DNA from: an uncultured beta proteobacterium | Lineage (GTDB): Bacteria; Pseudomonadota; Gammaproteobacteria; Burkholderiales; SHXO01 | Direction of reading: 5' to 3' | Assembly: GCA_963705615.1 (NCBI GenBank) | Contig: CAVPKE010000004.1 | Span: forward strand, 414,535-478,534 | DNA length: 64,000 nucleotides | Translations under genes and position numbers: made by a program | The notes under the pieces: model-generated | Seen by the model: only the letters and a program-made list of their open reading frames with translations | The model's database searches: none | Told to the model about the DNA's origin: nothing | Part shown: piece after piece, positions 22,831-40,642 of the stretch | Numbering within the stretch: the stretch's first letter is position 1 | Layout: each line of letters begins with the position of its first letter

Positions 22831-22875
22831 GCTTTCGCTTCGGCCTCGGTTAAGCAATCACGAGTCACTGCCCTC

Positions 22876-24067: not shown

Positions 24068-24091
24068 TCGAGAGCACATCGGAACAGCAGC

Positions 24092-24610
24092 GTGGACCCG
24101 GCCCGATATTCGGCGACAGAGACGTTGCGCGACGGCCGCTCGATCGAGATCCGCGCATTGAAGCCCGCCGATCGCGACGAGCTGCTCAGCGCGGTCGGCC
24201 GCATGAGCGACCAGTCGATCTATCGTCGTTTCTTCTGACCCAAGCAAACCTTCACCGACGAGGAGGTCGCGTATTACACGAACGTCGACTTCGTCAATCA
24301 CGTCGCGCTGGTGGCAGTGCTCGAGGAGGATGGGCGCTCGGTCATCGTCGGCGGCACACGCTACATCGTTTCCGAACCCGGAGCGGCCGAGGTCGCCTTC
24401 GCTGTAGACGATGCTCACCAGGGGCAAGGCATTGGCGCGCTGCTGATGAAGCACCTTGCTGGGATCGCTCGTCGATCCGGGCTCAAGGAGCTGTTCGCTG
24501 AAGTGCTCCCGAACAACATGGCGATGCTGAAGGTGTTCGAGAAGAGCGGGCTCGGCGTGAGCACGAAGCGCGAGCAGGGCGTGGTTCACGTCACGATCAA
24601 AATTTCCTGA
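24092..24610 (+). CDS. Stand-alone Pat-type (protein lysine acetyltransferase-like) GNAT domain with in-frame TGA at 24236-24238
   Basis: IEIRALKPADRDELL...SIYRRFF[TGA]PK...FT.VDF..HVALVAV ... VDDAHQGQGIGALLMKHL. This matches the GNAT half of Pat/Acs-regulating acetyltransferases. Confidence 0.7.
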
Positions 24611-24645
24611 TTCTTCGCCTTCTTAACTCTTCAAGCCATTGACCT

Positions 24646-25431
24646 ATGACACTCGAAATTCCGCGCCCGGTCCTCAAGGGCAAGAAAGCGCTGGTGGTGG
24701 GCATCGCCAACGAGCATTCCATCGCGTACGGCTGTGCGTGCGGCCTTTCGCGAACTCGGAGCCGAGCTGGCGATCACCTACCTCAACGAGAAAGCGAAAG
24801 CCTACGTCGAGCCGCTGGCGCGCAAGCTGGAGGCGCCGATCTTCATGCCGCTCGACGTCTCGAAGCCGGGCGAGCTGGAGGCGGTGTTCGAGCGTGTCGC
24901 CAAGCACTGGGGGCAGCCTCGACATCCTGGTGCACTCGATCGCCTGGGCGCCGAAGGACGACCTGCAGGGCGGACTGCTCAACTGCAGCGCGGAAGGATT
25001 CGGCCGCGCGATGGACATCTCCTGCCACTCTTTCATCCGCATGGCGAAGCTGGCCGCGCCGTTGATGAGCGACGGAGGCAGCTTGTTCGCCATGAGCTAC
25101 TACGGCGCGCAGAAGGTCGTGCCCAACTACAACGTGATGGGCCCGATCAAAGCGGCGCTCGAGGCCGCTTGCCGCTATCTCGCGTACGAGCTGGGGCCGA
25201 AGGGCATCCGCGTTCACCCGATCTCGCCGGGCCCGCTCAAGACCCGTGCGGCATCGGGGCTCAAGGACTTCGACCTGCTGCTCAACGAGGCGGTGGGGAA
25301 AGCGCCGGTGGGCGAGCTGGTCGACATCATGGACGTGGGCTTCGCCTGCGCCTATCTGGCTACGCCCGTACGCCCGACGCATCACCGGCGGCACCGTGTA
25401 CGTCGACGGCGGCGTCAACATCATGGCTTGA
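24646..25431 (+). CDS. fabI: Enoyl-[acyl-carrier-protein] reductase (NADH), FabI type, three frame breaks (about 24735, 24915, 25370)
   Basis: GKKALVVGIANEHSIAYG, ILVHSIA.AP, MSYYGA.KV.PNYNVMG.KAALE and ITGG.VYVDGG motifs. Confidence 0.9.
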
Positions 25432-25780
25432 GTGTCCGCATCGAACGCTTACCTTCTCCTCCCGCCGCCCCCCGAGGGACGTGCTGGCGGCATTGGGCGT
25501 ACTGGCTGATGGGAGGCATGCGGCGGGCGCCTCGCCGGGCGGCGTGGTAGACGGCGGGGGAGTGCTGGGCGGTCCAACGTCAATCGAACCGCCGCCGTAC
25601 CAGTTGTTATATCCCCACGCGCTGCCGTAGTAGACGCCGTAGCCGTAGCTCACGCTCACGCCCACGCTGCTGGAACCGCCGCCGTCACTGGCGCAACCGC
25701 CTGCAACGACAACTGCGGCTGCCGCGACAAGGGCGAACGCGGCGCGCAGGGCGACTCTGGTGCGGCTCGCGCGGACTCAT
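25360..25780 (-). CDS. Possible small Gly/Tyr-rich lipoprotein (frame break just after start; 3' end uncertain)
   Basis: ATG 25780 overlaps the VOC stop (ATGA). After a shift it reads RVALRAAFALVAAAAVVVAGGCASDGGGSS.. (lipobox), then VSYGYGVYYGSAWGYNNWYGGG. Confidence 0.35.
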
Positions 25781-26703
25781 TGCGTCTCCGGCGTCACTTC
25801 GGCCAGGCCGAGCGCTGCACCCGTGGGATCGACGATCAGGGCGACGTGGCCGTCCCGGACTGCGGCATTCGGTGGTACCACGACGCGTGCGCCGGCCTGC
25901 TCGGCCCGCGTCGTCGCTGTCTTCACATCCTCCACCCGCAGGTAGGGCAGCCACGCCGGCGAAACAGCGGGCGAGGGCAAGGGGATGATGCTGCAGCGCG
26001 TATATCCGCCCGAGGCGAGGAAGTAGCCCAAGGTGCCGTCCGGCCTCTCCACCGGCGGTTCGAGCTCGTAGCCTGCGAGGCCGCTGTAGAAATCCGCCAT
26101 CGCCTTCGGGTTCTTGGCCCACAGCTCGATCCACACCCACTGCTTGTCTTCGGCCAGGTAATCGGGTGGATCTCCCGATGACGAGTGGATCACACCAAAC
26201 GGCGCACCCTCTGGATCCGCGAGAATGGCCACCTCGCCGCGCCCGTTGAGAAGCCGTGGCGGAACGACAACCTTGCCGCCGTGACCCGCCGCGTAGCGCG
26301 CCGCCGCCTTGACGTCCGGCACTGAGATCATGCCGAGCCAACGGCTTCCTGGCGTGTTGTCAAAAGTATGGTCGCGCTGAATGATGCCGCCGACCGGGTC
26401 GCCGTCGGAAACTGCCAGGATGTAGCCTGCGCCGCGCGGCGCCTCGAAGCTCTGGAACGCCCAGCCGAACGCCTGAGCGTAAAAGTGCGCTGCTGTCTTC
26501 GCATCCTCGCTGAACAGCTCTGCCCAGACCCATTTGCCGGGCACGTACTGGTGAGTGGGTGGCTCGGTGATCGGAGGCCATACCAGACCGTCGGCGAAGC
26601 ACGACGCGGTAGCGATGAGTGCGGTGGCGAGTCCGCTGACGAAAAGAACGGTTTTGCGCTGCAGCACGGCGATCCCCATCACCCGAGTCGAAAAGCGACG
26701 CAT
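25777..26703 (-). CDS. Secreted tandem VOC (glyoxalase/bleomycin-resistance fold) protein
   Basis: Signal peptide from ATG 26703. Two VOC repeats (VWAELFSEDAK.AA.FY...FGW and VWIELWAKNPKAMADFY..LAGY). Intact. Confidence 0.8.
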   Translation of the reverse strand: MRRFSTRVMGIAVLQRKTVLFVSGLATALIATASCFADGLVWPPITEPPTHQYVPGKWVWAELFSEDAKTAAHFYAQAFGWAFQSFEAPRGAGYILAVSDGDPVGGIIQRDHTFDNTPGSRWLGMISVPDVKAAARYAAGHGGKVVVPPRLLNGRGEVAILADPEGAPFGVIHSSSGDPPDYLAEDKQWVWIELWAKNPKAMADFYSGLAGYELEPPVERPDGTLGYFLASGGYTRCSIIPLPSPAVSPAWLPYLRVEDVKTATTRAEQAGARVVVPPNAAVRDGHVALIVDPTGAALGLAEVTPETQ

Positions 26704-26833
26704 ATTTGTAACCGCGTTGCAACAGAATAGCAAGTCGCAGTCAGTCGAGCTTTTCTCAACGCTTGACTTGCTACCTTACGTGAGGAGCTAGTAGCATTCA
26801 TTGAGAAAACTCGAACGCCAAAGAGCGCGTCCC

Positions 26834-26856
26834 ACGGTAGCAGCAGCTGCTACCGT
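26834..26856. promoter_or_regulatory. Perfect 10-bp inverted repeat between promoter region and RBS of the porin-decarboxylase-arc block
   Basis: ACGGTAGCAG-cag-CTGCTACCGT ends 7 nt before RBS AGGAGGA (26864-26870) and 23 nt before ATG 26880. Confidence 0.35.
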
Positions 26857-26879
26857 TGTATTCAGGAGGAGATCACCCC

Positions 26880-28303
26880 ATGAGGAAGCTGATCCTTGCT
26901 GTCGCGTTCGCGGTGGCCTGTCCGGTGACGTGCCAAGCCGACGAGCTGAGCGACCTGAAAGCCCAGCTCGATGCGGCGATGAAGTCGATCCAGGCAGTTG
27001 AAGCAACGCGTCGAAGCGCTCGAGGCGGAGAAGGCAAAAGCGCGGCCGGGTGCGGCACCAGCGCCGGCGGAGGCCAAGGCGGCCCCAGCGCCCGCAGCCG
27101 CGGAGGCAAAAGAGGCGGCCGCTCCGGCTCCTGCTGCTGCACCGACGATGGCCGCGGGAGCGCCGGTCGTCGCGCCCGACGCCACGCCGGAGAAGGGGGC
27201 ACCGGACTCGAACAAGGCGCGCTTGGAGATCAGCGGCAAGGTGCAGCTGGACCTCATCTACGACTTCAAGCGCATGAATCCGCACTGGAACGCCACGGAG
27301 CGGCCGTCGCAGATCCCGGTCACCTGTCCGGGCGATGCCGGTTGCGGCACAGGACGGCGAGACCATCTTCAGCGTCCGGCAGAGCGCGATCGCGTTCAAG
27401 GGCTACGTCCCGACCTCGGCTCGGCGAGCTCAAGACCGATCTGAGCTTCGACCTGTTCGGCACCGGCGGGGGCAACACGACAGATCCGCCTGCTCAACGC
27501 CTGGGCCGAGCTCGGGAAGTTCGGAGTGGGGCAGTACTACACCCTGTTCATGAACATCGACACCTTCCCGAACATCATCGACTACTGGGGACCCAGCGGC
27601 ATGACGTTCCTGCGCAATCCGCAGGTGCGCTATACGCCCATCGATCGCACCGGCATGAAGCTGGCGTTTTCGCTCGAGGCTCCCAACGCCGCCATCGATA
27701 CCGGGAAGGTATCCGACGTCGACCCGACGCTGGGCGTCGAGGGCTGGACCCCTTGGCCGGACTTCGTGGGCAATTTGACTCTCAACGGCGATTGGGGCGA
27801 ATTCCAGACCGGCGGGATCTTGCGCTCGGTCGGTTACCAGACAACCACCACCGCCAGCGGCAACCCGTCCGGCACGGTGACCGGATGGGGCATCAACGTC
27901 AACGGCTGGCTGAACACGTTCGGCAAGGACCGGATCACGGGGCAGCTCGTCTACGGCCACGCCATCGCGAGCTACATGAACGACGGCGGCGTCGATATCG
28001 CGCCGAATGCGAACCTGCAGGCGCAGGCGGTGCCGTCGATCGGCGGCTTCGTGTACTACGACCACTACTGGAGCGACAAGTGGAGCAGCTCGCTCGGCTT
28101 GAGCGCGCATCGTCAGGACAACACCGCCGGACAGCACGGCAACGCGTTCAAGCAAGGGCAGCTACGCCTCGACCAACCTGCTGTGGTATCCGGCGAAGAA
28201 CGTGCTGACGGGCGCCGAGCTGCTGTGGGGCAAGCTCGAGCAGTTCAACGGCGAGTCGGCCGACGACGTGCGCGTCCAGTTCTCCGGGCAGTTCAAGTTC
28301 TAG
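26880..28303 (+). CDS. DcaP-like outer-membrane porin (N-terminal coiled coil + Ala/Pro-rich linker + beta-barrel), about five frame breaks
   Basis: Signal peptide, then ELSDLKAQLDA...KQRVEALEAEKAK, AP-rich linker, barrel strands, and a C-terminal VRVQFSGQFKF stop at 28301-28303. Confidence 0.7.
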
Positions 28304-28322
28304 CCGCGCGGCGGAGGAATTC

Positions 28323-30586
28323 ATGCAATTCCTACAAGCGTTTCCCATCGCCATCATCGACGAGGACTACGAAGGCAAGCACGCCGCCGGGCGCGGCATG
28401 CGGCAGCTCGCAGCTGCGATCGAGAAGGAAGGATTTCGTGTGGTGGCCGGTCTCAGCTACGAAGACGCGCGGCGGCTGGTCAACGTCTTCAACAGCGAAT
28501 CGTGCTGGCTGGTCTCGGTGGACGGCGCGGAGGCCACCCCGAAGCAATGGCAGATCCTGGAGGAGGTGCTGGCCGCCAAGCGCAGCCGCAACGACCGGCT
28601 GCCGATCTTCCTGTTCGGCGACGAGCGCACGGCGGAAATGGTTCCGGCAAGCGTGCTCAAGCACGCGAACGCCTTCATGCGCCTGTTCGAGGACTCGGCC
28701 GAGTTCCTGGCCCGCGCGATCGCCCGCTCGGCGCAGCTCTACCTCGAGCGCCTGCCGCCGCCGATGTTCAAGGCGCTCATGGACTACACGCTGCACGCCA
28801 GCTACTCCTGGCACACGCCCGGTCACGGCGGCGGAACGGCGTTCCGCAAGAGCCCGGTGGGCCAGCTGTTCTACGAGTTCTTCGGCGAGAACACGTTGCG
28901 CTCCGACATTTCGGTGTCGGTGGGCCAGCTCGGCTCGCTGCTCGACCACACGGGGCCGATCGCCGAAGGCGAGCGCAACGCGGCGCGGATCTTCGGCGCG
29001 GACGAGACCCTGTTCGTGGTCGGCGGCACTTCGACCTCGAACAAGATCGTCTGGCACGGCACCGTTTCCCGCGGCGACCTCGTGCTGTGCGACCGCAACT
29101 GCCACAAATCGATCCTGCACTCGCTGGTCATGACCGGGGCCACGCCGATCTACCTCGTCCCCTCGCGCAACGGTCTGGGCATCATCGGACCGATCTCGCG
29201 GGAGCAGTTCACGCCCGAGTCGATTCGGCGAAAGATCGCCGCCAGCCCGTTCGCGAAGGAGACGAGCGGCAAGGTGCGTCTGATGGTGATGACCAACTCC
29301 ACCTACGACGGCCTGTGCTACAACGTCGACGCCATCAAGCAGACGCTCGGCGACGCGGTGGACGTGCTGCACTTCGACGAGGCCTGGTACGCCTACGCCA
29401 ATTTCCACGAGTTCTACGACGGCTATCACGCCATCTCGTCCGAGCGCCCGGCGCGCTCGCCGCACGCCATCACCTTCGCCACGCAGTCCACGCACAAGCT
29501 CCTGGCCGCGCTGTCGCAGGCGTCCATGATCCACGTTCAGCACGGCGAGACGCAGCGGCTGGACATGGCGCGCTTCAACGAGGCGTTCATGATGCACACC
29601 TCGACCTCGCCGCAGTACGGCATCATCGCGTCCTGCGACGTCGCCGCCGCCATGATGGAGCAGCCGGCCGGCCGGGCGCTGGTGCAGGAGACGATCGACG
29701 AGGCGCTGAGCTTCCGCCGCGCCATGACCGCGGTGAAAAAGCAGCTGAACGGCTCGTGGTGGTTCGACGTCTGGCAGCCCGACGCGATGGCCAAGCGGCC
29801 GACCGATGAGCAGTCCGCCTGGGTGCTGAAACCCGGCGACCGGTGGCACGGGTTCGAAGAGCCTGGCCGAGAACCACGTGCTGGTCGACCCGATCAAGGT
29901 CACCATCCTCACGCCCGGGTCTGTCTGCCGACGGCAACATGCAGGAGCACGGCATCCCCGCCGCCGTGGTCACGCGGTTCCTGTCCGCCCGCCGCATCGA
30001 GATCGAGAAGACCGGCCTGTACTCCTTCCTGGTGCTGTTCTCGATGGGCATCACCAAGGGCAAGTGGAGCACGCTCGTCACCGAGCTCATCAACTTCAAG
30101 GATCTGTACGACGCCAACGCGCCGCTCAAGCGCGTGCTGCCGGCATTGGCGGAGGCGCATCCGGACGCCTACGCGAAGATGGGACTCAAGGATCTCTGCG
30201 AGCAGATGCACCGGACCTACCGCGAGGACAATCTGCCCAAAGCGCAGAAGGACATGTACACCACGCTGCCCGAGATGGCGATGCGGCCGGCCGATGCTTA
30301 CGAATGCCTCGTGCGCGGGCGCGTGGAGAGCGTGGAGATCGACAACCTGATGGGCCGCACGCTGGGGGTGATGGTGGTGCCCTACCCGCCCGGCATTCCC
30401 GTGATCATGCCGGGCGAGCGCATCACGCCGGCGACCAAGTCGATTCAAGACTACCTGCTGTACGCGCGCGAGTTCGACCGGAAGTTCCCCGGCTTCGAGA
30501 CCGACATCCACGGGCTGCGCTTCGAGCCGACCGCCGGCGGCAGGCGCTATCTGGTGGACTGCATCACACAAGGAGCCGATCGATGA
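28323..30586 (+). CDS. ldcA: Orn/Lys/Arg decarboxylase, LdcA-type (wing domain + PLP fold I), frame breaks near 29865 and 29918
   Basis: Near-colinear with the remembered P. aeruginosa LdcA: YSWHTPGHGGG.A.RKSPVGQ.F..FFGENTLRSD.SVSV..LGSLLDHTGP, DRNCHKSILHS, STHK, LYSFLVLFSMGITKGKWSTLVTEL. Substrate not assignable from sequence alone. Confidence 0.9.
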
Positions 30587-32908
30587 TCCCACGCTCGGTC
30601 AAGTCGCCCACCATCCCGATCCCGTTCCACAAGCTGCTCAAGGTGGTCGCGATCGTCGATAGCGCCAACCCGCAGACCAAGCAGCTTCTCGACCACATCG
30701 CCGCGGAGAACTTCAAGGTCGAGGTGACCGACCGCTTCGAGCGCGACGTCTCCGAGGACGCCGCGGTCGGCGCGTACATCGCGTTGATCGACGGTGAGCG
30801 CCTCGAGCAAGCGCGCAAGATGGCGCTAGCGGTTCGCGCCATCGGCTTTCGCACGCCGCTCTGGGCGCTCGCGGACTCGCACCGCATCTCCGACATCGCC
30901 GTCGTCGGCGGGCTCGGCGAAGTGGACGGCTACATCTACCTCGGCCAGCAGACGCCCGCCTTCTATGCGAAGCAGGTCGTGGCGAGCCTCGTCAAGTATG
31001 GGAGAGAGCTGCTGCCGCCGTTCTTCGGCGGGCTCATGGCCTACGACGGCGAGGCCAACGTGGCGTTCGATTGCCCGGGCCACCAGGGCGGTCAGTTCTA
31101 CCGCAAGTCGCCGGCGGGTCAGCTCTTCTTCAAGCATTTCGGCGAGAGCGTGTTTCGCAACGACCTGTGCAACGCCGACGTGGACTTGGGCGATCTGCTC
31201 ATCCACGAAGGCCCCGCCGCGGAAGCGCAGCGCTACGCCGCAAAGGTGTTCGGCGCCGACAAGACCTATTTCGTCCTGAACGGCACGAGCACCTCCAACA
31301 AGGTGGTCACGAACGCGGTGCTGCGGCGCGGGGACCTGGTCCTCTTCGACCGCAACAACCACAAGTCCCTCCACCAGGGTGCCCTGGTAGGAGGCCGGCG
31401 CGATCCCGATCTTCCTGCCGACCTCACGCAATCCCTTCGGCATGATCGGTGCCGTCGACTGGGACGCCTGGGACGAAAAATATCTCCGGGAGCAGATACG
31501 GGCCAACCCGCTGGTGAAGGACCCGCAGCGGCACAAAGCCGAGCGCCCGTTCCGCCTCGCGTGCATCCAGCTCGCGACCTACGACGGCACGATCTACAAC
31601 GTCCGCAAGGTCCTGGAGAAGATCGGGCACCTGTGCGACTACGTGCTCTGGGACGAGGCGTGGATCGGCTACAACGCCTTCCATCCGCTGTTCGAGGACC
31701 ACAGCCCGATGCGGCTGGAGAAGCTGGCACCGGAGATGCCCGGGCTGTTCTCGACGCAATCCGTCCACAAGCAGGGCGCCGGTTTCTCGCAGGCTTCCCA
31801 GATCCACAAGCGCGACGAGCATATCCGCGGCCAGCGGCGCTTCATCGAGCACAAGCGCTTCAACGAGTCGTTCCTGATGCACGCGTCCACGTCGCCCTTT
31901 TATCCGCTGTTCGCCTCTCTGGACGTGAACGCCAAGGTTCACGAGGGCAAGGCCGGTGAGATGCTGTGGGACCGGTGCATCGAGCTGGGCATCGAGGCCC
32001 GCAAGAAGATCCGCGAGTTCTGCCGCTACTTCGCGCGCACCGGGCAGAGCGACCAGGAGAAATGGTTCTTCGATCCGTTCGTGCCCGATGTGGTGACGAT
32101 CCGGGGCTCGAAGTTCACCGCGGATGCGACTGACCTTCCCTGGGAGGACCTCCCCACGGAGGTGATCAAGCGCGAGCAGCAGTGCTGGAACTTCCATCCC
32201 AACAGCCGCTGGCACGGGTACTCTGGCTACGCCGACGGCTACGCGATGGTGGACCCCAACAAGCTCACGCTGCTCACACCAGGAATCGAGCGCAAGACCG
32301 GCGAGTACCTCGACTTCGGGGTGCCCGCCACGGTGGTCGCCAATTACCTGCGCGAGCAGCGCGTAGTCCCGGAGAAGTGCGATCTCAACAGCATCCTGTT
32401 CCTGATGACGCCGGCGGAGGACGAGAGCAAGCTCAACACGCTGATCGCGAAGCTCGTCAAGTTCAAGAATCTCTGGGATCGCGACGCACCGCTGCCCGAG
32501 GTCCTGCCAACCCTGTATGCGGCGCACAGCGAGCGCTACGCGGGCTACACGCTGCGCCAGGTCTGCAACGAGATGCACGACTTCTATCGCAAGGCGAACG
32601 TCAAGGATCTGCAGCGGCGCTGCTTCCGGGCGGCGAGCTTCCCGGAGCTCGCGATGTCACCTAAGGACGCCTACGAGGCCCTGGTCGCGAACGATGTCGA
32701 CTACGTGCCTCTGGAGAGCATCAAGGGTCGCATCTCCGCCACTCTCGCATTGATCTACCCGCCCGGCATCGGTGTCGTGGTCCCCGGCGAGCGCTGGGAC
32801 GAGCGCGCGCAGCCGATGCTCGACTACTTCCTGGCCTTTCAGGAGTCGTTCAACCGCTTCCCGGGCTTCAACTACGAGGTCCAGGGCGTGTTCCAGGAAC
32901 GCGAGTAG
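30583..32908 (+). CDS. speF: Ornithine decarboxylase, SpeF/SpeC type, frame break near 31392
   Basis: AFDCPGHQGG.F, ADKTYFVLNGTS.SNKVV, LFDRNNHKS, RPFRLA.IQL.TYDGTIYN, KIGHLCDY, TQSVHKQ.AGFSQ.SQIHK, FGVPATVVANYLRE..VVPEKCDLNSILFL.TPAED. ATGA overlap with ldcA. Confidence 0.9.
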
Positions 32909-32980
32909 CGGCCGCATCAAGTTCCACACGTACGTGGTCCGCGAGTGAGCGTCGCGAAGGGGAATGAAGGAGGAGGCACT

Positions 32981-34317
32981 ATGCAAGAAGCGAAGAAGAT
33001 GAATCTCACCCAGCTGACGTTCCTCGTCGCCGTGAACATGATGGGCTCCGGCATCATCATGCTGCCGACGAACATGGCGCAGGTCGGCGCGATCTCGCTC
33101 CTGTCCTGGATCGTGACGGCGCTGGGCTCGATGGCCATTGCCTACGGGTTCGCGCAGGCCGGCATCTTCAATCAACGCGAGGGAGGCCTGGCCGCCTATG
33201 CCGAGGACGCCTACGGCAAAGCGGGCTACTTTCAGGTGTTCTTTCTGTATTTCCTGTCGCTGGCGATCGCCAACGTCGCGGTTGCGATTTCGGCCGTAGG
33301 ATATCTGACCGCGTTCATCCCCTGGCTCTCGTCGACGCCGATCGCCACCTGCGTCGGGGTGATCGCGCTGCTCTGGCTGACCACGGTCGCGAACTTCGGA
33401 GGTCCCAGCCTGACGGGGCGCATCGGCGCGGTGACGGTATGGGGTGTCATCTTGCCGGTGGGGTTGATCTCGATCATCGGCTGGTTCTGGTTCAAGGGCG
33501 GCACGTTCGCGGCGGCCTGGAACCCTCAAGGACTCAGCCTGGCGGAAGGCATGGGCTCGAGCATATCGCTCACCCTGTGGGCTTTCCTGGGCATGGAGTC
33601 GGCAGCGCAGAACTCGGCCGCGGTAGAGAATCCAAAGCGCAATGTCCCGCTCGCTTGCATGTTAGGCACTCTGGGCGCCGCTGCGATCTACATCCTGTCG
33701 ACGACGGTGATTCAGGGCATCGTGCCGAACGCCGAGCTGGCGAAATCGACGGGCCCGTTCGGCCTGGCCTACGCCCAGATGTTCAACCCGACGGTTGGCT
33801 CCATCGTCATGGCCCTTGCGGTCATGGCCTGCCTCGGCTCGCTGCTCGGCTGGCAGTTCACGCTCGCCCAGACTGCGAAGGCGGCGGCGGACGAGCGCAT
33901 GTTTCCTGCCTTCTTCGCGAAAGTGACCTCGATGGGCGCACCGATCATCGGCATGGTCATCATGGGCGTCGTCCAGTCCCTGATGGCGTTGTCGACGATT
34001 TCGCCCGATCTCAGCAAGCAGTTCAGCGCCCTGGTGAACCTCGCCGTGGTCACCAACGTCCTTCCCTACATCATCGCTCTCTCCGCGTTGACGGTGATCA
34101 TGCAGGCGGCGGGCGTCACCGGATCGACGTACCGGCGCAACTACGGTGGTCGCGCTGGTCGCGATGCTCTACAGCGTCTACGCCCTGTATGCCTCCGGCA
34201 AGGACGCAGTGCTCGGCGGCATGCTGGTGATGGGCGATCGGTTTCGTGATCTGGGGTTTCATTGCACCCCGCTTCGCATCGGGGCAGCCGGCTGCCGCGC
34301 TGGCCAAAGGGGCCTGA
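32981..34317 (+). CDS. potE: Putrescine:ornithine antiporter PotE (APA family), frame breaks near 34140 and 34235
   Basis: Colinear with E. coli PotE: VNMMGSGIIMLPT, ANVA.AISAVGY, TVANFGG, ITVWGVI.P, WAFLG.ES, VENP.RNVP, GSLLGWQFT.AQ, LVNLAVVTN..PYI. Confidence 0.9.
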
Positions 34318-34352
34318 CCGTGAGCGGACGGACGGTTGAGAGGAGACAGAAC

Positions 34353-35298
34353 ATGCAAAGCGCACGATCGGGAAGCCCTCGGGGCCGTCGAGCTCGGATC
34401 GCGATCTTCGCGATCGCAATCGTCGCGGCGCTGCTCCCGCCGCTCGCGCAGGCGGCCGGGACCCGCCGGCACCTTGGAGCGGGTGCGGCAAACAGGCAAG
34501 CTCACGCTCGGCTATCGAGCCGACGCGCGGCCATTTTCCTATCGGGACGAGTCGGGCAACCCGGCCGGCTATTCGGTCGCGCTGTGCTCGCGTATCGCCG
34601 AGCAGGTGAAAGCCGAGCTTGGGCTCTCCACGCTGGCCGTGGAGTGGATGCCAGTCACGCTCGAGGATCGCTTCCGCGCCGTGCAGGAGGGCAAGATCGA
34701 CCTGCTGTGCGGCGCGGCTACCGCGTCGCTGTCGAGAATGAAAGAAGTCTCCTTCTCGATCGCGATCTTCCCGGGCGGGATCGGGGCGCTTCTGCGTGCG
34801 GACTCTTCTCCCGCGCTGCGCGACGTCCTGTCCCGGAAGCCGCCGTCGGGACCGTTCTGGCGTGCGCACCCGGCGCGGATCCTGGAGGGCAAGACCTTCT
34901 CGGTCGTCGGCGGCACGACAAGCGAGCGCTGGTTGGCCGGTCGGCTCGACACGTTCCAGCTCACCGCGAAGGTCGTTCCTGTCGACGGCTACGAGGCTGG
35001 CATCCGGCGGGTGCTCGACCGCAGCTCCGACGTCTTCTTCGGAGAGCGCGCCATCCTTCTGGACATCGCCAAGCGCGGCCCGTCAACGCGCGATTTGACC
35101 GTCCTCGATCGCCAGTTCACGTACGAGCCCATAGCCCTCGCATTCGCTCGCGGCGACGAGGACTTTCGTCTGGTCGTGGATCGAACCTTGAGCCGGCTGT
35201 TCGGCTCCAAGGAGTTCGGCGACTTGTACGCGAAGTGGTTCGGGAAGCCCGACGAGGACGCGCGCAACTTCTTCCGCTGGACGGCGCTGCCGGACTGA
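34353..35298 (+). CDS. Periplasmic amino-acid-binding protein (family 3 SBP), orphan, frame break near 34460
   Basis: Signal peptide ...[21 protein letters not shown], then [36 protein letters not shown]. No permease or ATPase genes nearby. Confidence 0.8.
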
Positions 35299-35320
35299 GA
35301 CTCGAGTGAGGAGCAAAACG

Positions 35321-36548
35321 ATGCAGAAATTCGGAGTTCACAGCGAAGTCGGCAAGCTCAGAACCGTGCTGGTATGCCGCCCGGGGCTGGCCCATCAACG
35401 GCTGACGCCGGGCAACGCCGGCGATCTGTTGTTCGACGATGTGCTCTGGGTGCAGGAAGCGCAGAAGGACCACTACGATTTCGTGCTCAAGATGCGCGAG
35501 CGCGGCATCGAGGTGCTCGACCTGCACGAGCTGCTGGCCGAGACGCTGAAAGACAAGGCGGCGCGTGCCTGGGTGCTGGACCGCCGCATCACCGTCAACG
35601 ACGTCGGTCTGGGCGCCTCCCGTTTCGTGCGCCCCTGGCTCGACGAGATGCCGGCGGAGAAGCTCGCCGAGCATCTGATCGGCGGCATCGCGATCCTGGA
35701 CGTTCCCAAGAGCGAATGGGCGACGATGCTGGCCGACGCCTATCGGCGGCACCGACTTCATCATCCCGCCGGTGCCCAACACGCTGTTCCAGCGCGACCC
35801 GTCCTGCTGGATCTACAACGGCGTCACCTGCAATCCGATGTACTGGCCCGCGCGCAAGCCCGAGACGCTGCTGCAGCGCGCGGTCTACAAGTTCCATCCG
35901 CGCTTCAAGGGCGGTGAGTTCAACATCTGGTGGGGCGATTCGGACGAGTACTTCGGCGGATCCTGCATGGAGGGCGGCGATGTCATGCCCATCGGCAAGG
36001 GCGTGGTGCTGATCGGAATGGGCGAGCGCACCACCCGTCAGGCCGTGTTCCAGGTCGCGGATCGGCTGTTCAAGCAGAAGGCGGCCACGCGCGTGATCGG
36101 CTGCCTGATGCCGAAGAGCCGCGCCGCCATGCACCTCGACACCGTGTTCAGCTTCTGCGACCGCGACCTGTGCACGGCGTTCCGCGAGGTCGTAGACCAG
36201 GTCCGTTGCTACAGCGCGCGCCCGACAGGGGACGGCGGGTTGGAGGTTCACCCCGACCAGGGACACCTGTTCGACGTCGTCAAGGAAGCGCTAGGGCTGA
36301 AAGAGCTGCGCGTCGTGGAGACCGGCGGTAACGCCTGGCAGGCGCAGCGCGAACAGTGGGACGACGGCAATAACGTGGTCGCGCTCGAGCCCGGTGTAGT
36401 GGTCGCATACGATCGCAACACATACACCAACACGCTGCTGCGCAAGGCCGGGGTCGAGGTGATTACGGTGCGCGGCTCGGAGCTGGGCCGCGGCCGCGGG
36501 GGCGGCCACTGCATGACGTGCCCGATCTCGCGCGACCCAGCGTATTGA
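35321..36548 (+). CDS. arcA: Arginine deiminase, frame break near 35745
   Basis: Colinear with P. aeruginosa ArcA: [23 protein letters not shown]...[105 protein letters not shown]. Confidence 0.95.
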
Positions 36549-36626
36549 GGACCGAGCGCGTTCTGAAAGCGTGTGCGAGTCGCAATAGACTGCCGAGCTT
36601 AGTCACCATTATGTAAGGAGAGCATC

Positions 36627-37631
36627 ATGAGCTTCAATCTGCGCAATCGCTCGCTGCTGACGGTGCAGGATTACACCCAGCGCGAGTTTCGTTACCTGCT
36701 CGACCTCGCGCGCGATCTGAAGCGCGCCAAGTACGCGCGCACCGAGCAGAAGCACCTCGACGACAAGGAGATCTGCCTGATCTTCGAGAAGACCTCGACC
36801 CGCACCCGCTGCGCCTTCGAGGTCGCCTGCTACGACCAGGGCGCGAACGTGACCTACCTCGATCCGGCGGGCTCGCAGATCGGCCACAAGGAGTCGTTCA
36901 AGGACACCGCGCGCGTGCTCGGGCGGATGTACGACGCCATCGAGTACCGCGGCGCCAGCCAGCACGGCGTCGAGACGCTTGCCAAGTACGCCGGCGTGCC
37001 GGTGTTCAACGGGCTGACCGACGAGTACCACCCGACCCAGATGATCGCCGACGTGATGACCATGCGCGAGCACAGCGACAAGCCGATATCCGAGATCAAG
37101 TACGCCTTCCTCGGCGACACGCGCAACAACATGGGACACTCGCTGATGATCGTCGGCTGCCTCATGGGGATGGACGTGCGCCTGTGCGGGCCGAAGAAGC
37201 TGTGGCCTTCGGACGAATTCGTGACGATTGCCCGCGACTTGGAGAAGAAGTACGGCGGGAAGCTCACCATCACCGACGACGCCAAGCAGGGGGTCAAGGG
37301 CGTGGACTTCATTCACACCGACGTCTGGGTCTCGATGGGCGAGCCGAAAGAAGTGTGGAAAGAGCGTATCGACCTGCTGCTCCCGTATCAGGTCAACGTG
37401 GATCTGATGAAGGCGAGCGGCAACCCGCACGTCAAGTTCATGCACTGCCTGCCCGCATTCCACGACACGGAGACCGTCCTGGGCAAACAGATCGCCGAGA
37501 CCTACGGCATCTCCAACGGGCTGGAGGTCACCAACGACGTGTTCGAGTCGGAGTACAACATCGCTTTCGAGCAGGCGGAGAACCGCATGCACACCATCAA
37601 GGCGATCCTGGTCGCCACGCTGGGCGAGTGA
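36627..37631 (+). CDS. arcB: Ornithine carbamoyltransferase, catabolic type
   Basis: Intact, 334 aa. [65 protein letters not shown]. Very close to the remembered ArcB. Confidence 0.95.
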
Positions 37632-37666
37632 CGCCATGCGCGTAGCTCCGTGCGCGAACGGCTGAG

Positions 37667-38996
37667 ATGGCGGCGACGCCGAACGCGGCCAAGAGCCTGG
37701 GCCTCGCCGCCTGTACCGCGGTGGTGGTGGGCAACATGGTGGGCTCGGGCTTCTATCTGTCGCCCTCCGCCGTGGCGCCCTACGGCGTGCTCGCGATCCT
37801 CGCGTGGATCGTGATGGGCATCGGTGCCATCTGCCTCGGGCTCACCTTCGCGCGCCTGGCGCGGATCGCGCCGGCGACCGGCGGCCCGTACGCCTACACG
37901 CGCATGGCCTACGGCGACTTCGCCGGTTTCCTCGTCGGCTGGGGCTACTGGATTTCCATCTGGGCATCGCTGCCGGCGATCGCGTTCGCCTTCGCCGGCG
38001 CGGTCATGAACCTCGCGCCCGAGCACCTGTTCAACAAGCCCGTGGCGTTGATCCTGACGCTCGGCGCCATCTGGTTCGTGGTGCTGATCAACCTGCGCGG
38101 CGTGAAGACTGCCGGCATCTTCGCGGAGGTGACGACATACACCAAGCTCGTGCCTTTCGCCGCCATCGCCCTGGTCGGATTGTTCTACGTTCGCCGAGAG
38201 AACCTGTCTGAGTTCAATCCCAGCGGAGAATCGCTGCTCGCCTCGTTCGCGGCGCTCGCGCCGCTGACGATGTTCGCCTACCTCGGCCTCGAGTCGGCGA
38301 CGGTGCCGGCCGGCGACGTGCGCGACCCTCAGCGCACCATTCCCCGCTCGACCATCATCGGCATCAGCGTCGCCGCGCTGCTCTACGTGCTCGGGACCGT
38401 GGTCGTGTTCGGCGTCGTGCCGCGGCAAGCAGCTCGTGAATTCGGTGGCCCCGTTCAGCGATGCAGCGCGCCTCATGTGGGGCGCCTGGGGGGCGGGCGC
38501 GGTCGCGATCGCCGTGATCATCTCGTCGATCGGCGCGCTCAACGGCTGGACCCTGATGATGGGCCAGGTGCCCATGGCCGCCGCGCAGGACGGCGTGTTT
38601 CCGTCCGCATTCGGTCGATTGTCCGGGCGCGGCGTTCCGGCCGTCGGCATCGTGCTCTCGGCCGTGCTCGCCACCGGCCTGGTGGCTTTCCAGGCAATGG
38701 GCTCGCCCGGCGTGCGTGCCTTCTACAACCTCGTGGTCAGCTTGAGCACCATGGCGGCGGTCATTCCCTACGCGTTTTGCGCGCTGGCGGTCGGCCTGGT
38801 CGCAGCGCGCACGGCCGGCAGCGGCGGGAAGGTGCCGCGGGTCACCGTGATCGAAGGGATCGCGTTCGTCTTCTCGATCTTCACGGTCTACGGCTGCGGC
38901 GCGACGGCCGTCCTGTACGGCCTGCTCCTGCTCTTGCTTGGAATTCCGGTGTACGTGTGGCAGCGCCACCGCACGCTCTCATCGACTGCACCTTAG
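37667..38996 (+). CDS. APA/APC-family amino-acid (basic amino acid/polyamine-type) permease, frame break near 38430
   Basis: 12-TM APC pattern: [53 protein letters not shown]. It occupies the slot that arcD holds in arcDABC operons. Confidence 0.85.
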
Positions 38997-39009
38997 GAGA
39001 GATCGCACC

Positions 39010-39951
39010 ATGCTCGTCGTCACAGCCCTGGGCGGCAACGCCCTTCTGCGGCGGGGAGAGCCGATGACCGCCGAGAATCAGCGCCGCAACATCCGGATCG
39101 CCGCCGAAGCGCTCGCGCCGGTGGCGAGCGCGCATCAGCTGGTCGTGGGCCACGGCAACGGGCCCCAGGTCGGTCTGCTGGCGTTGCAAGGCGCCGCCTA
39201 CAGCAAGGTGGAAACCTATCCGCTCGATGTGCTGGGCGCGGAGACCGAGGGCATGATCGGCTACATGATCGAGCAGGAGCTGGGCAACCTGCTGCCGTTC
39301 GAGCGGCCCTTCGCCACCCTGCTGACCATGATCGAAGTCGATCCGGGCGATCCGGCGTTCAAGAACCCGACCAAGTTCATCGGGCCGGTCTACGCGAAAG
39401 AGGAAGCCGATCGCATCGCCAAGGAGAAGGGCTGGGTGTTCAAGCAGGACGGCGACAAGTGGCGGCGCGTCGTGGCCTCGCCGGAGCCCAAGCGCATCTT
39501 CGAGCTGCGCCCGATCAAGTGGCTGCTCGAGCGCAACACCATCGTGATCGCGGCGGGCGGCGGCGGCATCCCGACCATCTACGAGCCGGGTGCGCACCGC
39601 AAGCTGGTCGGCGTCGAGTGCGTGATCGACAAGGATCTGGCGTCGGAGTTGTTGGCGCGCGAGCTGGACGCGGATCTGTTCGTGATGCTGACCGACGCCG
39701 ATGCGGTCTACGTCGACTGGGGCAAACCTACGCAGAAGGCGATCCGGCGCGGCTCGCCGGCGGCGCTGGGAGCCATGCAGTTCGCTGCCGGCTCCATGGG
39801 GCCGAAGGTCGAGGCGGCGTGCCGGTTCGTCTCGGCCACAGGCAAACGAGCCGCGATCGGCGCGCTTGCGGACCTCGGCAAGATCATCGCCGGGGAGGCG
39901 GGGACGACCGTGTCGTCCAAAGAAAGCGGGATCGTCTACGCTGTGCAATGA
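39010..39951 (+). CDS. arcC: Carbamate kinase
   Basis: Intact, 313 aa. [41 protein letters not shown].....TD...VY..WG. Confidence 0.95.
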
Positions 39952-39960
39952 GCTGCACCT

Positions 39961-39982
39961 GGGATGCCCCGCTGGGCATTCC
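39961..39982. terminator. Stem-loop between convergent arcC and STAS-like genes
   Basis: GGGATGCCC-cgct-GGGCATTCC lies 10 nt after the arcC stop. A second palindrome CACCGCGGTG sits at 39994-40003. No clear T-tract. Confidence 0.35.
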
Positions 39983-40011
39983 TGAATTGACAGCACCGCG
40001 GTGCGGTCTGG

Positions 40012-40377
40012 TCACCCGGCCTCGAGCCACGCGAGTGCCGCAGCGCGACTAGCGGCATCGAAAGTACGCAGCTGCGCGCTCACGAAGTGGCTCGCGATCT
40101 TTGGCGCCGCAGCAAGCAACGAGCTGTCCGTGACCACAGCGATGCGCCGGATCTGGCGATGGTGATCACGCACGAAGCGCAGATGAGACAGCAGCGCCGC
40201 GAAATTCTCCCAGCCTGGAAACGACGGTGCCTCGATCATCAGACCGTTGAGTTTGCCGTTCTGCTCGATGTAAGGATCGACGGCGGCCGCGAGCGCGGTG
40301 AAGTCTTCGGCCCGAAGCGCCCGGTCGGGTTTGAGGATCAAGATCCCTCGGTCGCGCAGGAGCTCGTGTTGGATCAT
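40012..40377 (-). CDS. STAS/SpoIIAA-like (DUF3478-type) small protein
   Basis: 121-aa intact ORF. Pattern ...GILILKP...L...DF..L...VDPYIE..G.L.GL.I....FPGWENF.AL..H.RFV..HH..I.RIAVVTD. Confidence 0.7.
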   Translation of the reverse strand: MIQHELLRDRGILILKPDRALRAEDFTALAAAVDPYIEQNGKLNGLMIEAPSFPGWENFAALLSHLRFVRDHHRQIRRIAVVTDSSLLAAAPKIASHFVSAQLRTFDAASRAAALAWLEAG

Positions 40378-40642
40378 GGCTCATGTCTCCAGATTGGTCC
40401 GCCGCGTCTGTAGCGATCGTCAAGCCAGCCTGCGCGGGGCGGAGGCGCGTACGCCTGGGGCGATTCTAGACACCAATGCGACAACCGGCAAGGCCGCGCC
40501 GTAGTCGTTATTTGATGTTGATCTATGTCGGGGCACCTGGTGTAACCGGAGAGTATAGTTCTTCAATCACGATCGCTGTCTGAGTCGCACCCGCCAGACG
40601 ATTCGCGCGGGCGAAGCGCTTTAACGTTCAAGGAGGTGTCTC

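Follow-up and report, generated by a model that had tools for sequence, protein, structure and literature searches.

The speF-potE operon of E. coli encodes an acid-inducible ornithine decarboxylase and a putrescine/ornithine antiporter, and arcDABC of P. aeruginosa serves anaerobic arginine fermentation. In Weissella, an arginine/putrescine exchanger was reportedly suggested in a 2009 abstract. Among lactic acid bacteria, the succession of arginine deiminase (ADI) and ornithine decarboxylase (ODC), leading from arginine to putrescine, has been demonstrated physiologically in L. rossiae D87 (PMC5838238), whose odc-potE cluster was sequenced by itself, and is ascribed to Weissella halotolerans W22 in a citing passage of PMC6351943. 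In L. saerimneri 30a, lysine and ornithine decarboxylases share one promiscuous amino acid/amine antiporter (PMC5838238, PMC6257575). The closest relatives in cultured bacteria are found in S. meliloti, where a list of symbiosis genes includes SMa0678, SMa0680, SMa0682, SMa0684 and arcA, and arcABC is discussed as part of acid tolerance (PMC7268258); for the decarboxylase/antiporter region, acid resistance has only been proposed and the transporters are uncharacterised (PMC10385936).

The window, by which we mean the whole stretch of 64,000 nucleotides analysed here, probably from an uncultured soil member of the Burkholderiales, contains a nine-gene cluster (Table 1). We consider it likely that this cluster is an intact basic-amino-acid catabolism unit, probably one operon, which would break down arginine and lysine with ammonia, ATP and exported diamines as products. 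As in E. coli speF-potE, the ornithine decarboxylase directly 5' of PotE is of the wing-domain family. Unlike in the E. coli operon, potE is followed by a binding-protein gene, the pair shares its block with ldcA, arcABC and a porin gene, and a leader peptide has no room because the speF-type gene overlaps ldcA. The order of ArcA, ArcB and ArcC matches that of P. aeruginosa, but an arcD-family gene is absent, an APA-family permease lies between arcB and arcC, and arcA, just 22 nt from the gene before it, lacks a separate promoter region. The two decarboxylases (probably lysine, and ornithine) recall the three-component system of L. saerimneri 30a; the lactic acid bacteria are Gram-positive, so that their systems have neither an outer membrane with a porin nor a binding protein in a periplasm.

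Table 1. Genes of the cluster in the window, with the one-nucleotide insertions that interrupt them
Feature	Position	Strand	Size and family	Insertions
DcaP-family outer-membrane porin	26880..28303	+	~474 aa after repair; PF19577	five frame-breaking; three further (27035, 27041, 27047) jointly adding one codon
LdcA-subfamily wing-domain PLP decarboxylase	28323..30586	+	~753 aa; PDB 6Q6I similarity	two, ~29860 and ~29913
SpeF/SpeC-type (OdcI-like) ornithine decarboxylase	30583..32948	+	~787 aa; NF010092	~31390 and ~32903
PotE-type putrescine/ornithine (basic amino acid/diamine) antiporter	32981..34317	+	~444 aa; NF007938	34142 and ~34235
Periplasmic SBP_bac_3 binding protein	34353..35298	+	314 aa; PF00497	one, 34456
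Arginine deiminase ArcA	35321..36548	+	408 aa; NF002381	one, 35744
Catabolic-type ornithine carbamoyltransferase ArcB	36627..37631	+	334 aa, intact; NF002470	
APA-family basic amino acid/polyamine antiporter	37667..38996	+	442 aa; APA family only	one, 38430
Carbamate kinase ArcC	39010..39951	+	313 aa, intact; NF009008	

Integrity and layout of the block

In the window as given, single-base insertions break seven of the nine genes (all except arcB and arcC), 14 of them frame-breaking in total. Frame repair, which the original prediction had called for, recovered nine intact genes. This agrees with the metagenome contig L161, which is 96.2-96.6% identical, has the same flanks and carries all nine genes intact. 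Over the 17.6 kb compared, the two differ by 28 indels, every one of them an insertion on the side of the window and not one a deletion. Because L161 has the genes intact and the differences run in this one direction, the broken frames are, on this comparison, insertions made in sequencing or assembly, artefacts that require no biological explanation. A decaying pseudogene cluster, in which the 14 frameshifts are genuine mutations, would also leave seven genes interrupted, but it is extremely improbable: beyond the lack of deletions, insertions relative to L161 also strike the flanking genes, including an adh_short/FabI-like gene and xfp, and frame switches are not confined to the block but run along the entire window. 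Furthermore, two related contigs of metagenome-assembled genomes (L005, L013) carry 7-15 such insertions per gene at sites that differ from those of the window, and orthologues match at 80-95% protein identity both before and after each shift.

In the repaired window, the nine + strand genes were re-found in the order and at the coordinates originally proposed, from the porin ATG, preceded by an AGGAGG ribosome-binding site, to the arcC stop. The intergenic gaps, from porin to arcC, are 19, -4, 32, 35, 22, 78, 35 and 13 nt, the same range (-4 to +78 nt) as predicted, and the anticipated ATGA overlap of the two decarboxylase genes was read directly in the sequence at 30583-30586. An AGGAG-like ribosome-binding site lies 5' of eight of the nine genes; the exception is the permease gene, whose 20 upstream nt show no evident site. 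This packing and the shared direction suggest that the nine genes are probably co-transcribed as one operon. Internal promoters or terminators, named with the prediction as what might split the block, were sought with shuffled sequence as control: 7 terminator-like sites (8.4 expected) and 3 promoter-like sites (1.7 expected) were observed, a frequency judged not above that of shuffled sequence, and the scan found no promoter-like site on the + strand inside the block. Two negative results count against the proposed unit: no FNR/ANR-type box with up to two mismatches was found upstream of the block, a difference from P. aeruginosa arcDABC, and no regulator gene was found inside or adjoining it. 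The block is flanked by a DUF3141-pta-ackA operon on one side and a phosphoketolase gene on the other.

Gene assignments and the proposed pathway

The ornithine decarboxylase, PotE, ArcA, ArcB and ArcC all pass curated family cut-offs, and the original gene labels proved correct throughout. The SpeF-type enzyme reaches 944 bits against NF010092 (cut-off 794) and, unlike E. coli SpeF, stays below the enterobacterial SpeF-specific model TIGR04301 (925 vs 1310). PotE, with 12 TM helices, scores above both PotE equivalog models (NF007938, 671 bits vs 409; TIGR04299, 564 vs 560), a likeness to E. coli PotE. ArcA carries the catalytic-cysteine motif GGGHCMTCP and reaches 573 bits with NF002381 (cut-off 414), with 487.8 vs 489.1 for TIGR01078; ArcC reaches 503 vs 361 with NF009008 and 401.5 vs 358 with TIGR00746. 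For ArcB (NF002470, 572 bits vs 545), the top PDB matches are 1DXH and 1ORT, which we take for the catabolic enzyme of P. aeruginosa, at 555 bits, with the E. coli enzymes at 429; these matches point to a catabolic type. The repaired porin scores 55 bits with PF19577 (cut-off 27); it is made up of a signal peptide, a coiled-coil-like segment at the N-terminal side, a linker rich in Ala and Pro, and a beta-barrel with an FKF end. Its intact 471-aa orthologue in L161 likewise belongs to PF19577.

The first decarboxylase contains the PLP-lysine motif STHK and falls under every NCBIfam cut-off. Its LdcA-type label is borne out by 976 bits to PDB 6Q6I (P. aeruginosa LdcA) over residues 6-750, compared with ~620 bits for AdiA and 580-608 bits for LdcI/LdcC. 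From this similarity it is probably a lysine decarboxylase, and SMa0682, its probable counterpart in S. meliloti, has no ODC or ADC activity.

The second antiporter is assigned to the APA family only. Its closest family model is AdiC (278 bits vs a cut-off of 574), it scores 179 vs 591 with TIGR03810, and it matches AdiC structures at ~225 bits. We favour an ArcD-like exchange of arginine for ornithine, with lysine:cadaverine as the alternative pair. A second exchanger had been predicted, and the permease is indeed present, but its place between arcB and arcC is limited to this lineage (the window and L161) and L138: most relatives have no such permease or carry it 3' of arcC, as L143, L157 and L158 do, and in L001 and L002 it adjoins ldcA. 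The permease sequence itself gives no reading of the substrates, a point that counts against the proposed unit.

Each step of the following mechanism is drawn from family membership and gene linkage. The DcaP-like porin would let arginine, ornithine and lysine across the outer membrane, and the periplasmic binding protein would capture the incoming amino acid and hand it to PotE, which would swap it for a cytoplasmic diamine; the permease encoded within the arc genes would most likely exchange arginine for ornithine. In the cytoplasm, ArcA, ArcB and ArcC would convert arginine into ornithine, two NH3 and CO2 with the gain of one ATP, the SpeF-type enzyme would decarboxylate ornithine to putrescine with consumption of one proton, and the LdcA-type enzyme would likewise consume a proton in turning lysine into cadaverine. 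Export of a divalent diamine against uptake of a monovalent amino acid would add membrane potential. For each arginine, the cell would on balance gain one ATP, neutralise about three protons and export charge, which would help in acid surroundings or under limited respiration.

Experiments on relatives give the scheme some support: S. meliloti Odc1, which is probably SMa0680, is ornithine-specific (PMC10385936), and the S. meliloti symbiosis-gene list and the ADI and ODC route of L. rossiae point the same way. Several observations count against the scheme. Since E. coli PotE is a putrescine/ornithine exchanger, flux from arginine to putrescine would need ornithine recycling or a broader specificity. 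In S. meliloti, the activity of Odc1 is low, and the odc1 mutant at pH 5.5 grows like wild type (PMC10385936).

PotE and its proposed binding-protein partner

The original prediction had treated the binding protein (SBP_bac_3, PF00497, 84 bits; cleavable signal peptide) as a bystander. It turned out to be a constant companion of PotE: PotE lies directly upstream of it in 85 of 90 informative loci, and its gene begins 35 nt past the potE stop, a spacer length kept in five diverged loci. PotE and SBP are fused in frame in 8 of the 85 loci, and such fusions make up at least 120 protein clusters. These proteins are full-length, with an extra (13th) membrane helix linking PotE to the binding domain that would set this domain in the periplasm, and on a rough tree of that domain they appear in at least seven separate places. 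Together, the linkage and the fusions point to the binding protein as a cognate PotE partner, that is, to a binding-protein-assisted APC-family antiporter.

This argument resembles that for TAXI-GltS of Bordetella pertussis, which relied on tight gene linkage and natural fusion proteins (PMC12344293); here, too, a binding protein and a secondary transporter are genetically linked, with natural fusions elsewhere. Unlike TRAP, TTT and TAXI-GltS, the window pair would combine an APC-superfamily antiporter, an exchanger rather than a symporter, with a binding protein of the SBP_bac_3 class, the usual partner of ABC importers.

It is quite improbable that the binding protein is unrelated to PotE, as a stray ABC-importer component or a periplasmic sensor or chaperone. 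Annotation pipelines do call it 'amino acid ABC transporter substrate-binding protein', and to our knowledge all APC-family transporters function without a binding protein. In addition, an AlphaFold2 model of one fusion (pTM 0.49) has no confident inter-domain packing, and in an S. meliloti TnSeq screen the binding-protein gene SMa0677 was not significant (p = 0.16), whereas the PotE-like SMa0678 was. However, in none of the loci inspected does the binding-protein gene adjoin a gene for an ABC permease or ATPase, and the constant PotE neighbour and spacer and the recurrent 13th-helix fusions also speak against this reading. The TnSeq result counts against the proposed unit too, as does the binding protein's closest relative of solved structure, which, at low identity, binds glutamate/aspartate.

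In the literature, we found no description of a binding-protein-assisted APC-family antiporter, nor of the S. meliloti binding protein as a component of the system. The binding protein thus appears undescribed as a PotE partner, and in this it would be what is newest about the locus. The original prediction knew of no description of the combined architecture; this is only half right, as rhizobial relatives of the gene set are known and discussed.

Linkage of the two modules in other genomes

The same genes occur together on S. meliloti pSymA-type plasmids (SMa0677-SMa0697), on R. leguminosarum pRL12 and on plasmid 1 of P. caribensis, at 55-85% amino-acid identity, and in dozens of soil metagenome contigs. 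The locus on plasmid pB of S. meliloti strain LMB1, whose genes were matched to the 1021 locus tags by gene order, size and product names rather than by sequence comparison, has homologues of eight of the nine window genes: LdcA-type (80% amino-acid identity), SpeF-type (79%), PotE (76%), binding protein (55%), permease (69%), ArcA (70%), ArcB (85%) and ArcC (67%). It shares the order ldcA-speF-potE-SBP and the decarboxylase gene overlap. Unlike the window block, it is not co-directional throughout: DUF2950 and DUF3300 genes on the opposite strand separate the binding-protein gene from arcA (22 nt apart in the window), the permease gene is upstream and divergent, and there is no porin. A search for the window's gene order elsewhere found all nine genes so arranged in L161, but most relatives differ at the permease.

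The arrangement recurs in many independent contigs and in cultured rhizobia and is not chance. It is one form of a modular family that is widespread: PotE and the binding protein make up the core, and the add-ons are decarboxylases (SpeF-, LdcA- or AdiA-like), arcABC, a further antiporter and a porin. The pairing of ADI with ODC/PotE is found in several gene orders (for example L155, L138 and L175) and in several reported phyla or classes; arcA comes directly after the binding-protein gene in 25 of 88 informative loci, 19 of the 37 loci that have long flanks contain arc genes, and L173 has the same cluster with PotE and the binding protein fused. Such linkage across lineages suggests selection and makes the predicted route from arginine through ornithine to putrescine plausible.

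Alternatively, the modules may merely adjoin on a shared accessory island without metabolic coupling, the decarboxylases, PotE and binding protein serving polyamine supply or lysine/ornithine turnover and arcABC with the permease a separate arginine fermentation. We regard this as unlikely, although it is a real possibility. The modules lie apart in many loci: 3' of the binding-protein gene, arcA follows directly in only those 25 loci, another decarboxylase in 34 and something else in 20; they are split by the two opposite-strand genes in LMB1 and divergent in P. caribensis, and even the arcA-arcB spacer is inconstant (78 vs 143 nt). About half of the loci with long flanks have the part made up of PotE, binding protein and decarboxylase but no arc genes, so the two modules also work apart, which counts against the proposed unit. 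Against uncoupled modules stand the 22-nt SBP-arcA junction of the window, in which no promoter-like site was found, the repeated origin of the pairing in several orders and groups, and the fact that one module yields what the other consumes; moreover, conversion of arginine into putrescine by ADI and ODC is documented in other bacteria (PMC5838238). Coupled catabolism is thus the reading that we prefer. In four further contigs (L162-165), the block lies near genes for a glutaminase, an asparaginase and a Lyase_1/FumaraseC_C-type (aspartase- or fumarase-class) protein.

Gene order and frame repair

In the window (G+C ~65%), the ORF listing and third-position G+C showed a + strand coding run at ~26.9-40.0 kb with frame switches within most of its genes. 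Profile searches on the fragments gave the gene order as a DcaP-like porin, two wing-domain Orn/Lys/Arg decarboxylases, PotE and a periplasmic SBP_bac_3 binding protein, followed by arginine deiminase, ornithine carbamoyltransferase, an APA-family permease and carbamate kinase. Frame repair, called for by the original prediction, was performed by frameshift-aware alignment to intact orthologues and recovered all nine genes, eight of which have a ribosome-binding site. The intergenic gaps are, in order, 19, -4, 32, 35, 22, 78, 35 and 13 nt; the two decarboxylase genes visibly share an ATGA at 30583-30586. The repaired limits, the gaps and the visible overlap therefore showed that the prediction, made from the sequence alone, had given the nine-gene order, its limits, the gaps of -4 to +78 nt and the ATGA overlap correctly to the base. 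Rfam and tRNA scans of the whole window returned no matches, and an exact look-up of the window's ArcB sequence matched no record.

Positions of the repaired genes and of neighbouring features in the window
Feature	Position	Strand	Remark
Glycosyltransferase-type gene	5465-6856		
DUF2950/DUF3300 pair	15951-18151	-	
FNR-like box	19455-19468		upstream of block
DUF3141-pta-ackA-FabI-like operon	19534-25630	+	upstream of block
Leader inverted repeat	26836-26854		
DcaP-like porin	26880-28303	+	frame-repaired
LdcA-type decarboxylase	28323-30586	+	frame-repaired
SpeF-type ornithine decarboxylase	30583-32948	+	frame-repaired
potE	32981-34317	+	frame-repaired
potE-binding protein spacer	34318-34352		
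SBP_bac_3 binding protein	34353-35298	+	frame-repaired
arcA	35321-36548	+	frame-repaired
arcA-arcB spacer	36549-36626		
arcB	36627-37631	+	frame-repaired set
APA-family permease	37667-38996	+	frame-repaired
arcC	39010-39951	+	frame-repaired set
Small gene, SpoIIAA-like in L161	40012-40377	-	
FNR-like box	40512-40525		downstream of block
Phosphoketolase	40643-43058	+	downstream of block
SulP-STAS permease and polyphosphate kinase 2	46743-49458	-	
OprB-family porin	50425-51819		
Two DUF1254/DUF1214 proteins beside MetA-pathway-type outer-membrane proteins	53086-60058	-	

The nature of the frame breaks was judged against L161, an ENA metagenome contig that aligns to 24327-41917 of the window at 96.2-96.6% nucleotide identity and encodes a binding protein 94% identical to the window's. 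In L161 all nine genes are intact (471, 753, 787, 443, 314, 408, 334, 442 and 313 aa), and the flanking genes also match. All 28 indels between the two sequences are insertions in the window, mostly of a single G or C, with no deletions, and they also hit the flanking adh_short/FabI-like and phosphoketolase genes. Frame switches inside genes were found across the whole window. Two related MAG contigs, L005 and L013, showed the same insertion-only pattern (7-15 per gene, at different positions), and protein identity to orthologues was high on either side of every shift. Real pseudogenisation of the broken genes was rejected, given that the indels relative to L161 are insertions only and that the same type of error occurs elsewhere in L005 and L013. 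On these comparisons, the frameshifts of the block are best read as artefacts and the locus as functional. The insertion pattern was shown for 24327-41917 and probably applies to the whole window, where gene calls need frame repair.

Enzymes, porin and leader of the block

The three arginine deiminase pathway genes could be assigned from profile scores. ArcA scored 573 bits on NF002381 (cut-off 414) and carries the GGGHCMTCP motif; on TIGR01078 it was borderline (487.8 vs 489.1). ArcC reached 503 bits on NF009008 (vs 361) and 401.5 on TIGR00746 (vs 358). ArcB scored 572 bits on NF002470 (vs 545) and only 281 on the putrescine carbamoyltransferase model TIGR04384 (vs 500). Its best PDB matches, 1DXH and 1ORT, which we take to be the catabolic ornithine carbamoyltransferase of P. 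aeruginosa, gave 555 bits, and the E. coli enzymes gave 429. An agmatine deiminase pathway, the other reading considered for these genes, was excluded because ArcB scores as an ornithine and not as a putrescine carbamoyltransferase; ArcA, for its part, is a PF02274/NF002381 protein. The permease encoded among the arc genes can be placed at the level of the APA family only, with AdiC as its top match (278 vs 574) and 179 vs 591 on the arginine-ornithine antiporter model; its residues at the AdiC site gave no decisive pointer to a substrate. Its location between arcB and arcC, shared with L161 and the homologous locus L138, is a local variation; in most relatives the two arc genes are adjacent. 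The arcA-arcB spacer is 78 nt long in the window and 143 nt in L161 (12195-12337); the additional L161 sequence includes an inverted repeat rich in G+C (CCCTCCCCC...GGGAGGGGG) and may represent an attenuator or a small inserted repeat element. Folding of the arcA-arcB spacer revealed nothing special (z = -0.09).

The SpeF-type enzyme scored 944 bits on NF010092, a model for wing-domain AAT-fold ornithine decarboxylase (vs 794), and fell below the enterobacterial SpeF equivalog TIGR04301 (925 vs 1310). For the first decarboxylase, NCBIfam scores were ambiguous, and comparison with PDB entries was more informative: P. aeruginosa LdcA (6Q6I) matched over the full length with 976 bits, compared with 606-622 for AdiA-type enzymes, 578-608 for LdcI/LdcC and at most 351 for Odc. 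This comparison groups the enzyme with LdcA instead of with arginine decarboxylases, and by sequence it is assigned to the LdcA subfamily. Of the 'lysine or arginine decarboxylase' originally predicted, the LdcA-type label thus held (976 bits to 6Q6I) and the arginine option was dropped (AdiA at ~620). The LdcA subfamily is ancestral in Betaproteobacteria, and its gene neighbourhood is not conserved (Carriel et al., PMC6257575). The repaired porin belongs to the DcaP family (PF19577, 55 bits vs 27). Its sequence reads as a heptad-like N-terminal segment, which we infer to be a coiled-coil, before the barrel, and ends in FKF. Other porin families occupy related loci, namely Alginate_exp in L170 and L172 and Porin_4 in L173.

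The block is preceded by a 146-nt leader. The strongest hairpin in this leader (fold z = -2.1) comes from a near-perfect inverted repeat with 9-bp arms, GGTAGCAGC-A-GCTGCTACC, situated 25 nt ahead of the porin start codon. This repeat is kept only in the near-identical L161 and may act as an operator or as a structure in the 5'-UTR. The FNR-like motif TTGAT-N4-ATCAA (≤2 mismatches) had no match in 26734-26879 or before arcA, and no regulator gene was found in or beside the block. The original prediction had named internal promoters and terminators as features that would split the block into independently regulated units; a sigma-70 and terminator scan gave nothing above shuffled expectation.

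PotE and its adjacent binding protein

PotE passed both equivalog models, NF007938 with 671 bits (vs 409) and TIGR04299 with 564 bits (vs 560), and potE starts directly downstream of the SpeF-type gene. The feature of the block most worth following up is the pairing of this exchanger with the binding protein encoded after it. A PotE orthologue lies immediately upstream of the binding-protein gene, on the same strand, in 85 of the 90 loci whose upstream sequence was long enough. In five loci (the window, L161, L162, L166 and L170), exactly 35 nt separate the potE stop from the binding-protein start, with an AGGAGA ribosome-binding site at a fixed distance inside this spacer, and the binding proteins of these loci share as little as ~60-70% identity with the window's. 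None of the loci examined has an ABC permease or ATPase gene beside the binding-protein gene.

Some homologues in the protein searches were longer than expected, and these proved to be PotE C-termini continuing in frame into the binding protein. Complete fusions of ~735-760 aa occur in 8 of 85 loci. Their layout is the last PotE helix (TM12), a short linker with basic residues, a segment of strong hydrophobicity that corresponds to the split form's signal peptide, and the binding domain; as a 13th helix, the hydrophobic segment would place the binding domain in the periplasm. A database search with one fusion returned at least 120 clusters, and all those listed (570-776 aa, 63-92% identity) carry AA_permease_2 and SBP_bac_3; they include MAG proteins labelled Sphingomonadaceae and Burkholderiales. 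On L173, a 3.9-Mb contig, the fusion lies within the same cluster, in the order LdcA-SpeF-[PotE::SBP]-ArcABC. In a rough neighbour-joining tree of binding domains, drawn with no support values, the fused forms fall at at least seven separate positions among the split forms. The transporter pair is thus split in the window and fused in many relatives. An AlphaFold2 model of a fusion (pTM 0.49) folded both domains, with a low-confidence linker and docking not resolved. The nearest solved relative of the binding protein is the Glu/Asp-binding protein 2VHA, by a weak alignment (E = 3e-20).

According to a 2025 paper, TRAP and TTT were the only transporters known to employ a soluble binding protein until TAXI-GltS, and this use has been tied to elevator-type mechanisms (PMC12344293). 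TAXI-GltS was itself proposed as a new binding-protein-dependent class on the same type of evidence (PMC12344293). The membrane partner here is AA_permease_2/APC and not of the TRAP or TTT type, so that PotE with its binding protein, if real, would be a different class. We give roughly even odds that PotE and the adjacent binding protein represent a new class of binding-protein-assisted secondary transporter, which would be the first in the APC (LeuT-fold) superfamily and the first antiporter. Such a partnership between a binding protein and a LeuT-fold antiporter would, if true, break the TRAP/TTT elevator-type pattern. Our literature searches found no report of an APC transporter with a binding protein or of the Pfam pair, which is absence of evidence only.

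In such a system, the binding protein would catch scarce basic amino acids in the periplasm and hand them to the exchanger. It might also widen import to arginine or lysine, and a single PotE would then serve arginine deiminase, ornithine decarboxylase and lysine decarboxylase chemistry; the widened import would give a net exchange of arginine in for putrescine out. S. meliloti has the split form (SMa0677/SMa0678), and the idea is thus testable in a tractable organism.

In current databases, JGI labels many stand-alone binding proteins of ~315 aa 'putrescine:ornithine antiporter', and NCBI labels the ~740-aa fusions plain 'putrescine-ornithine antiporter', so that the fusion architecture is hidden by annotation. 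The proposed function, if true, would correct the present names of both.

Recurrence, cultured relatives and gene neighbourhood

The original prediction had proposed a search for the same gene order in other genomes, and indeed the cluster recurs in independent assemblies. Species-representative genomes were searched with the binding protein as the central anchor, and metagenomes were then searched with its alignment; 104 loci were classified, including ones added by exact look-ups and some near-duplicates. Among the 88 informative loci, the gene after the binding-protein gene was arcA in 25, another decarboxylase in 34 on the same strand and in 3 divergently, an APA permease in 6 and something else in 20. 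Six of these other decarboxylases, from four loci, were scanned: four were AdiA-like (1024-1101 bits vs a cut-off of 1167), and the remaining two, both in L173, were one LdcA-like and one SpeF-like. The arc genes were present in 19 of 37 loci with long flanks. Complete porin-decarboxylase-SpeF-PotE-SBP-ArcABC clusters were found in several independent assemblies (homologous loci L003, L117, L162-165 and L166-169), with binding proteins 60-89% identical to the window's, and the arginine deiminase and ornithine decarboxylase/PotE modules were linked in other orders in L155 and L138. Record titles of the genome matches name Alpha- and Betaproteobacteria and Gemmatimonadota and Acidobacteriota MAGs. 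This recurrence in soil metagenomes and in MAGs labelled Proteobacteria, Gemmatimonadota and Acidobacteriota suggests a common, mobile use of arginine and lysine by soil bacteria, which would serve pH control and ATP supply.

Searching the proteins of plasmid records gave binding-protein orthologues from Sinorhizobium, Rhizobium and Paraburkholderia caribensis, which are 50-57% identical; numerous matches in Ralstonia, at 25-31% identity, were set aside as generic binding proteins. Plasmid pB of S. meliloti LMB1 (locus L174) carries a divergent permease (69%) and a cation transporter, then the LdcA-type (80%) and SpeF-type (79%) enzymes, PotE (76%) and the binding protein (55%), and finally arcA (70%), arcB (85%) and arcC (67%). 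Unlike in the window, opposite-strand DUF2950 and DUF3300 genes lie between the binding-protein and arc genes. In P. caribensis, arcCBA is divergent from SpeF-PotE-SBP, and on R. leguminosarum pRL12, arcB-arcC precedes the decarboxylase-SBP set by a few kb. The counterparts in S. meliloti 1021, matched on gene order, size and names, are SMa0677 (binding protein), SMa0678 (PotE-like), SMa0680, SMa0682, SMa0684 (permease) and SMa0693/0695/0697 (arcABC).

Several of these genes have been studied. SMa0678, SMa0680, SMa0682, SMa0684 and arcA are listed as symbiosis genes, and the arginine transporters and arcABC are discussed under acid tolerance (Flores-Tinoco et al., PMC7268258). In the tables of the same work SMa0677 was not significant in TnSeq (p = 0.16), and purified SMa0682, the probable LdcA-type counterpart, was inactive on ornithine and arginine, the substrates assayed (PMC7268258). 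Acid resistance has been proposed as the role of the rhizobial locus, and such transporters are described as essentially uncharacterised (Dunn and Becerra-Rivera, PMC10385936). S. meliloti Odc1, the probable SpeF-type counterpart, is ornithine-specific and weak, and an odc1 mutant grew normally at pH 5.5 (PMC10385936). In lactic acid bacteria, arginine deiminase and ornithine decarboxylase convert arginine to putrescine (PMC5838238), and PMC6351943 and PMC8928434 cite work on this conversion in Weissella.

Given the rhizobial locus and the lactic acid bacterial conversion, both the concept and a looser form of the locus have already been described. The claim that the combined architecture had not been described therefore survives for the single co-directional nine-gene form and not for the concept. 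This form, with its porin and embedded permease, is a variant of the known looser locus. As a whole, the locus is a new form, more tightly arranged, of a gene set that is known from rhizobia and soil bacteria and poorly characterised there. In model rhizobia, the locus of which the block is a condensed version has been tentatively linked to acid tolerance in symbiosis. The proposed route from arginine through ornithine to putrescine is plausible, and as a concept it is not new.

The block lies downstream of the DUF3141-pta-ackA-FabI-like operon and upstream of phosphoketolase, each with an FNR-like box; such boxes (TTGAT-N4-ATCAA, ≤2 mismatches) number 22 across the window vs 10 expected. In the homologous locus L092, phosphoketolase likewise follows arcC. 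Together, carbamate kinase and the flanking genes resemble a neighbourhood for substrate-level phosphorylation at low oxygen. In L162-165, the neighbours of the homologous cluster are genes for glutaminase, asparaginase and a Lyase_1/FumaraseC_C-type protein of the aspartase or fumarase class. Either setting would be compatible with a function in controlling pH or in supplying ATP at the substrate level.

Further genes around the block also recur. The DUF2950/DUF3300 pair and the SulP-STAS permease, the latter with polyphosphate kinase 2, flank it at a distance of 9-10 kb. DUF2950 and SulP genes recur beside the cassette on the S. meliloti and R. leguminosarum plasmids, DUF3300 being confined to the former and ppk2 to the latter, and three distant metagenome loci also have SulP-STAS; in all, the recurrence of these genes spans L170, L172, L173, L174 and L176 and suggests a larger shared accessory island. 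Bicarbonate can be a substrate of SulP proteins, which may suit a pathway that releases CO2. The small gene between arcC and phosphoketolase corresponds to a 121-aa SpoIIAA-like (PF11964) gene in L161, and L162 and L163 also have a gene of this family downstream of their version of the cluster. Farther away, two consecutive DUF1254/DUF1214 proteins are encoded beside MetA-pathway-type outer-membrane proteins, with an OprB-family porin nearby; these genes are unrelated to the block finding. Window positions 1-11000, which include a glycosyltransferase-type gene, have a G+C content of 56-60% vs ~65% elsewhere and a weak third-position signal, and may be of different origin.
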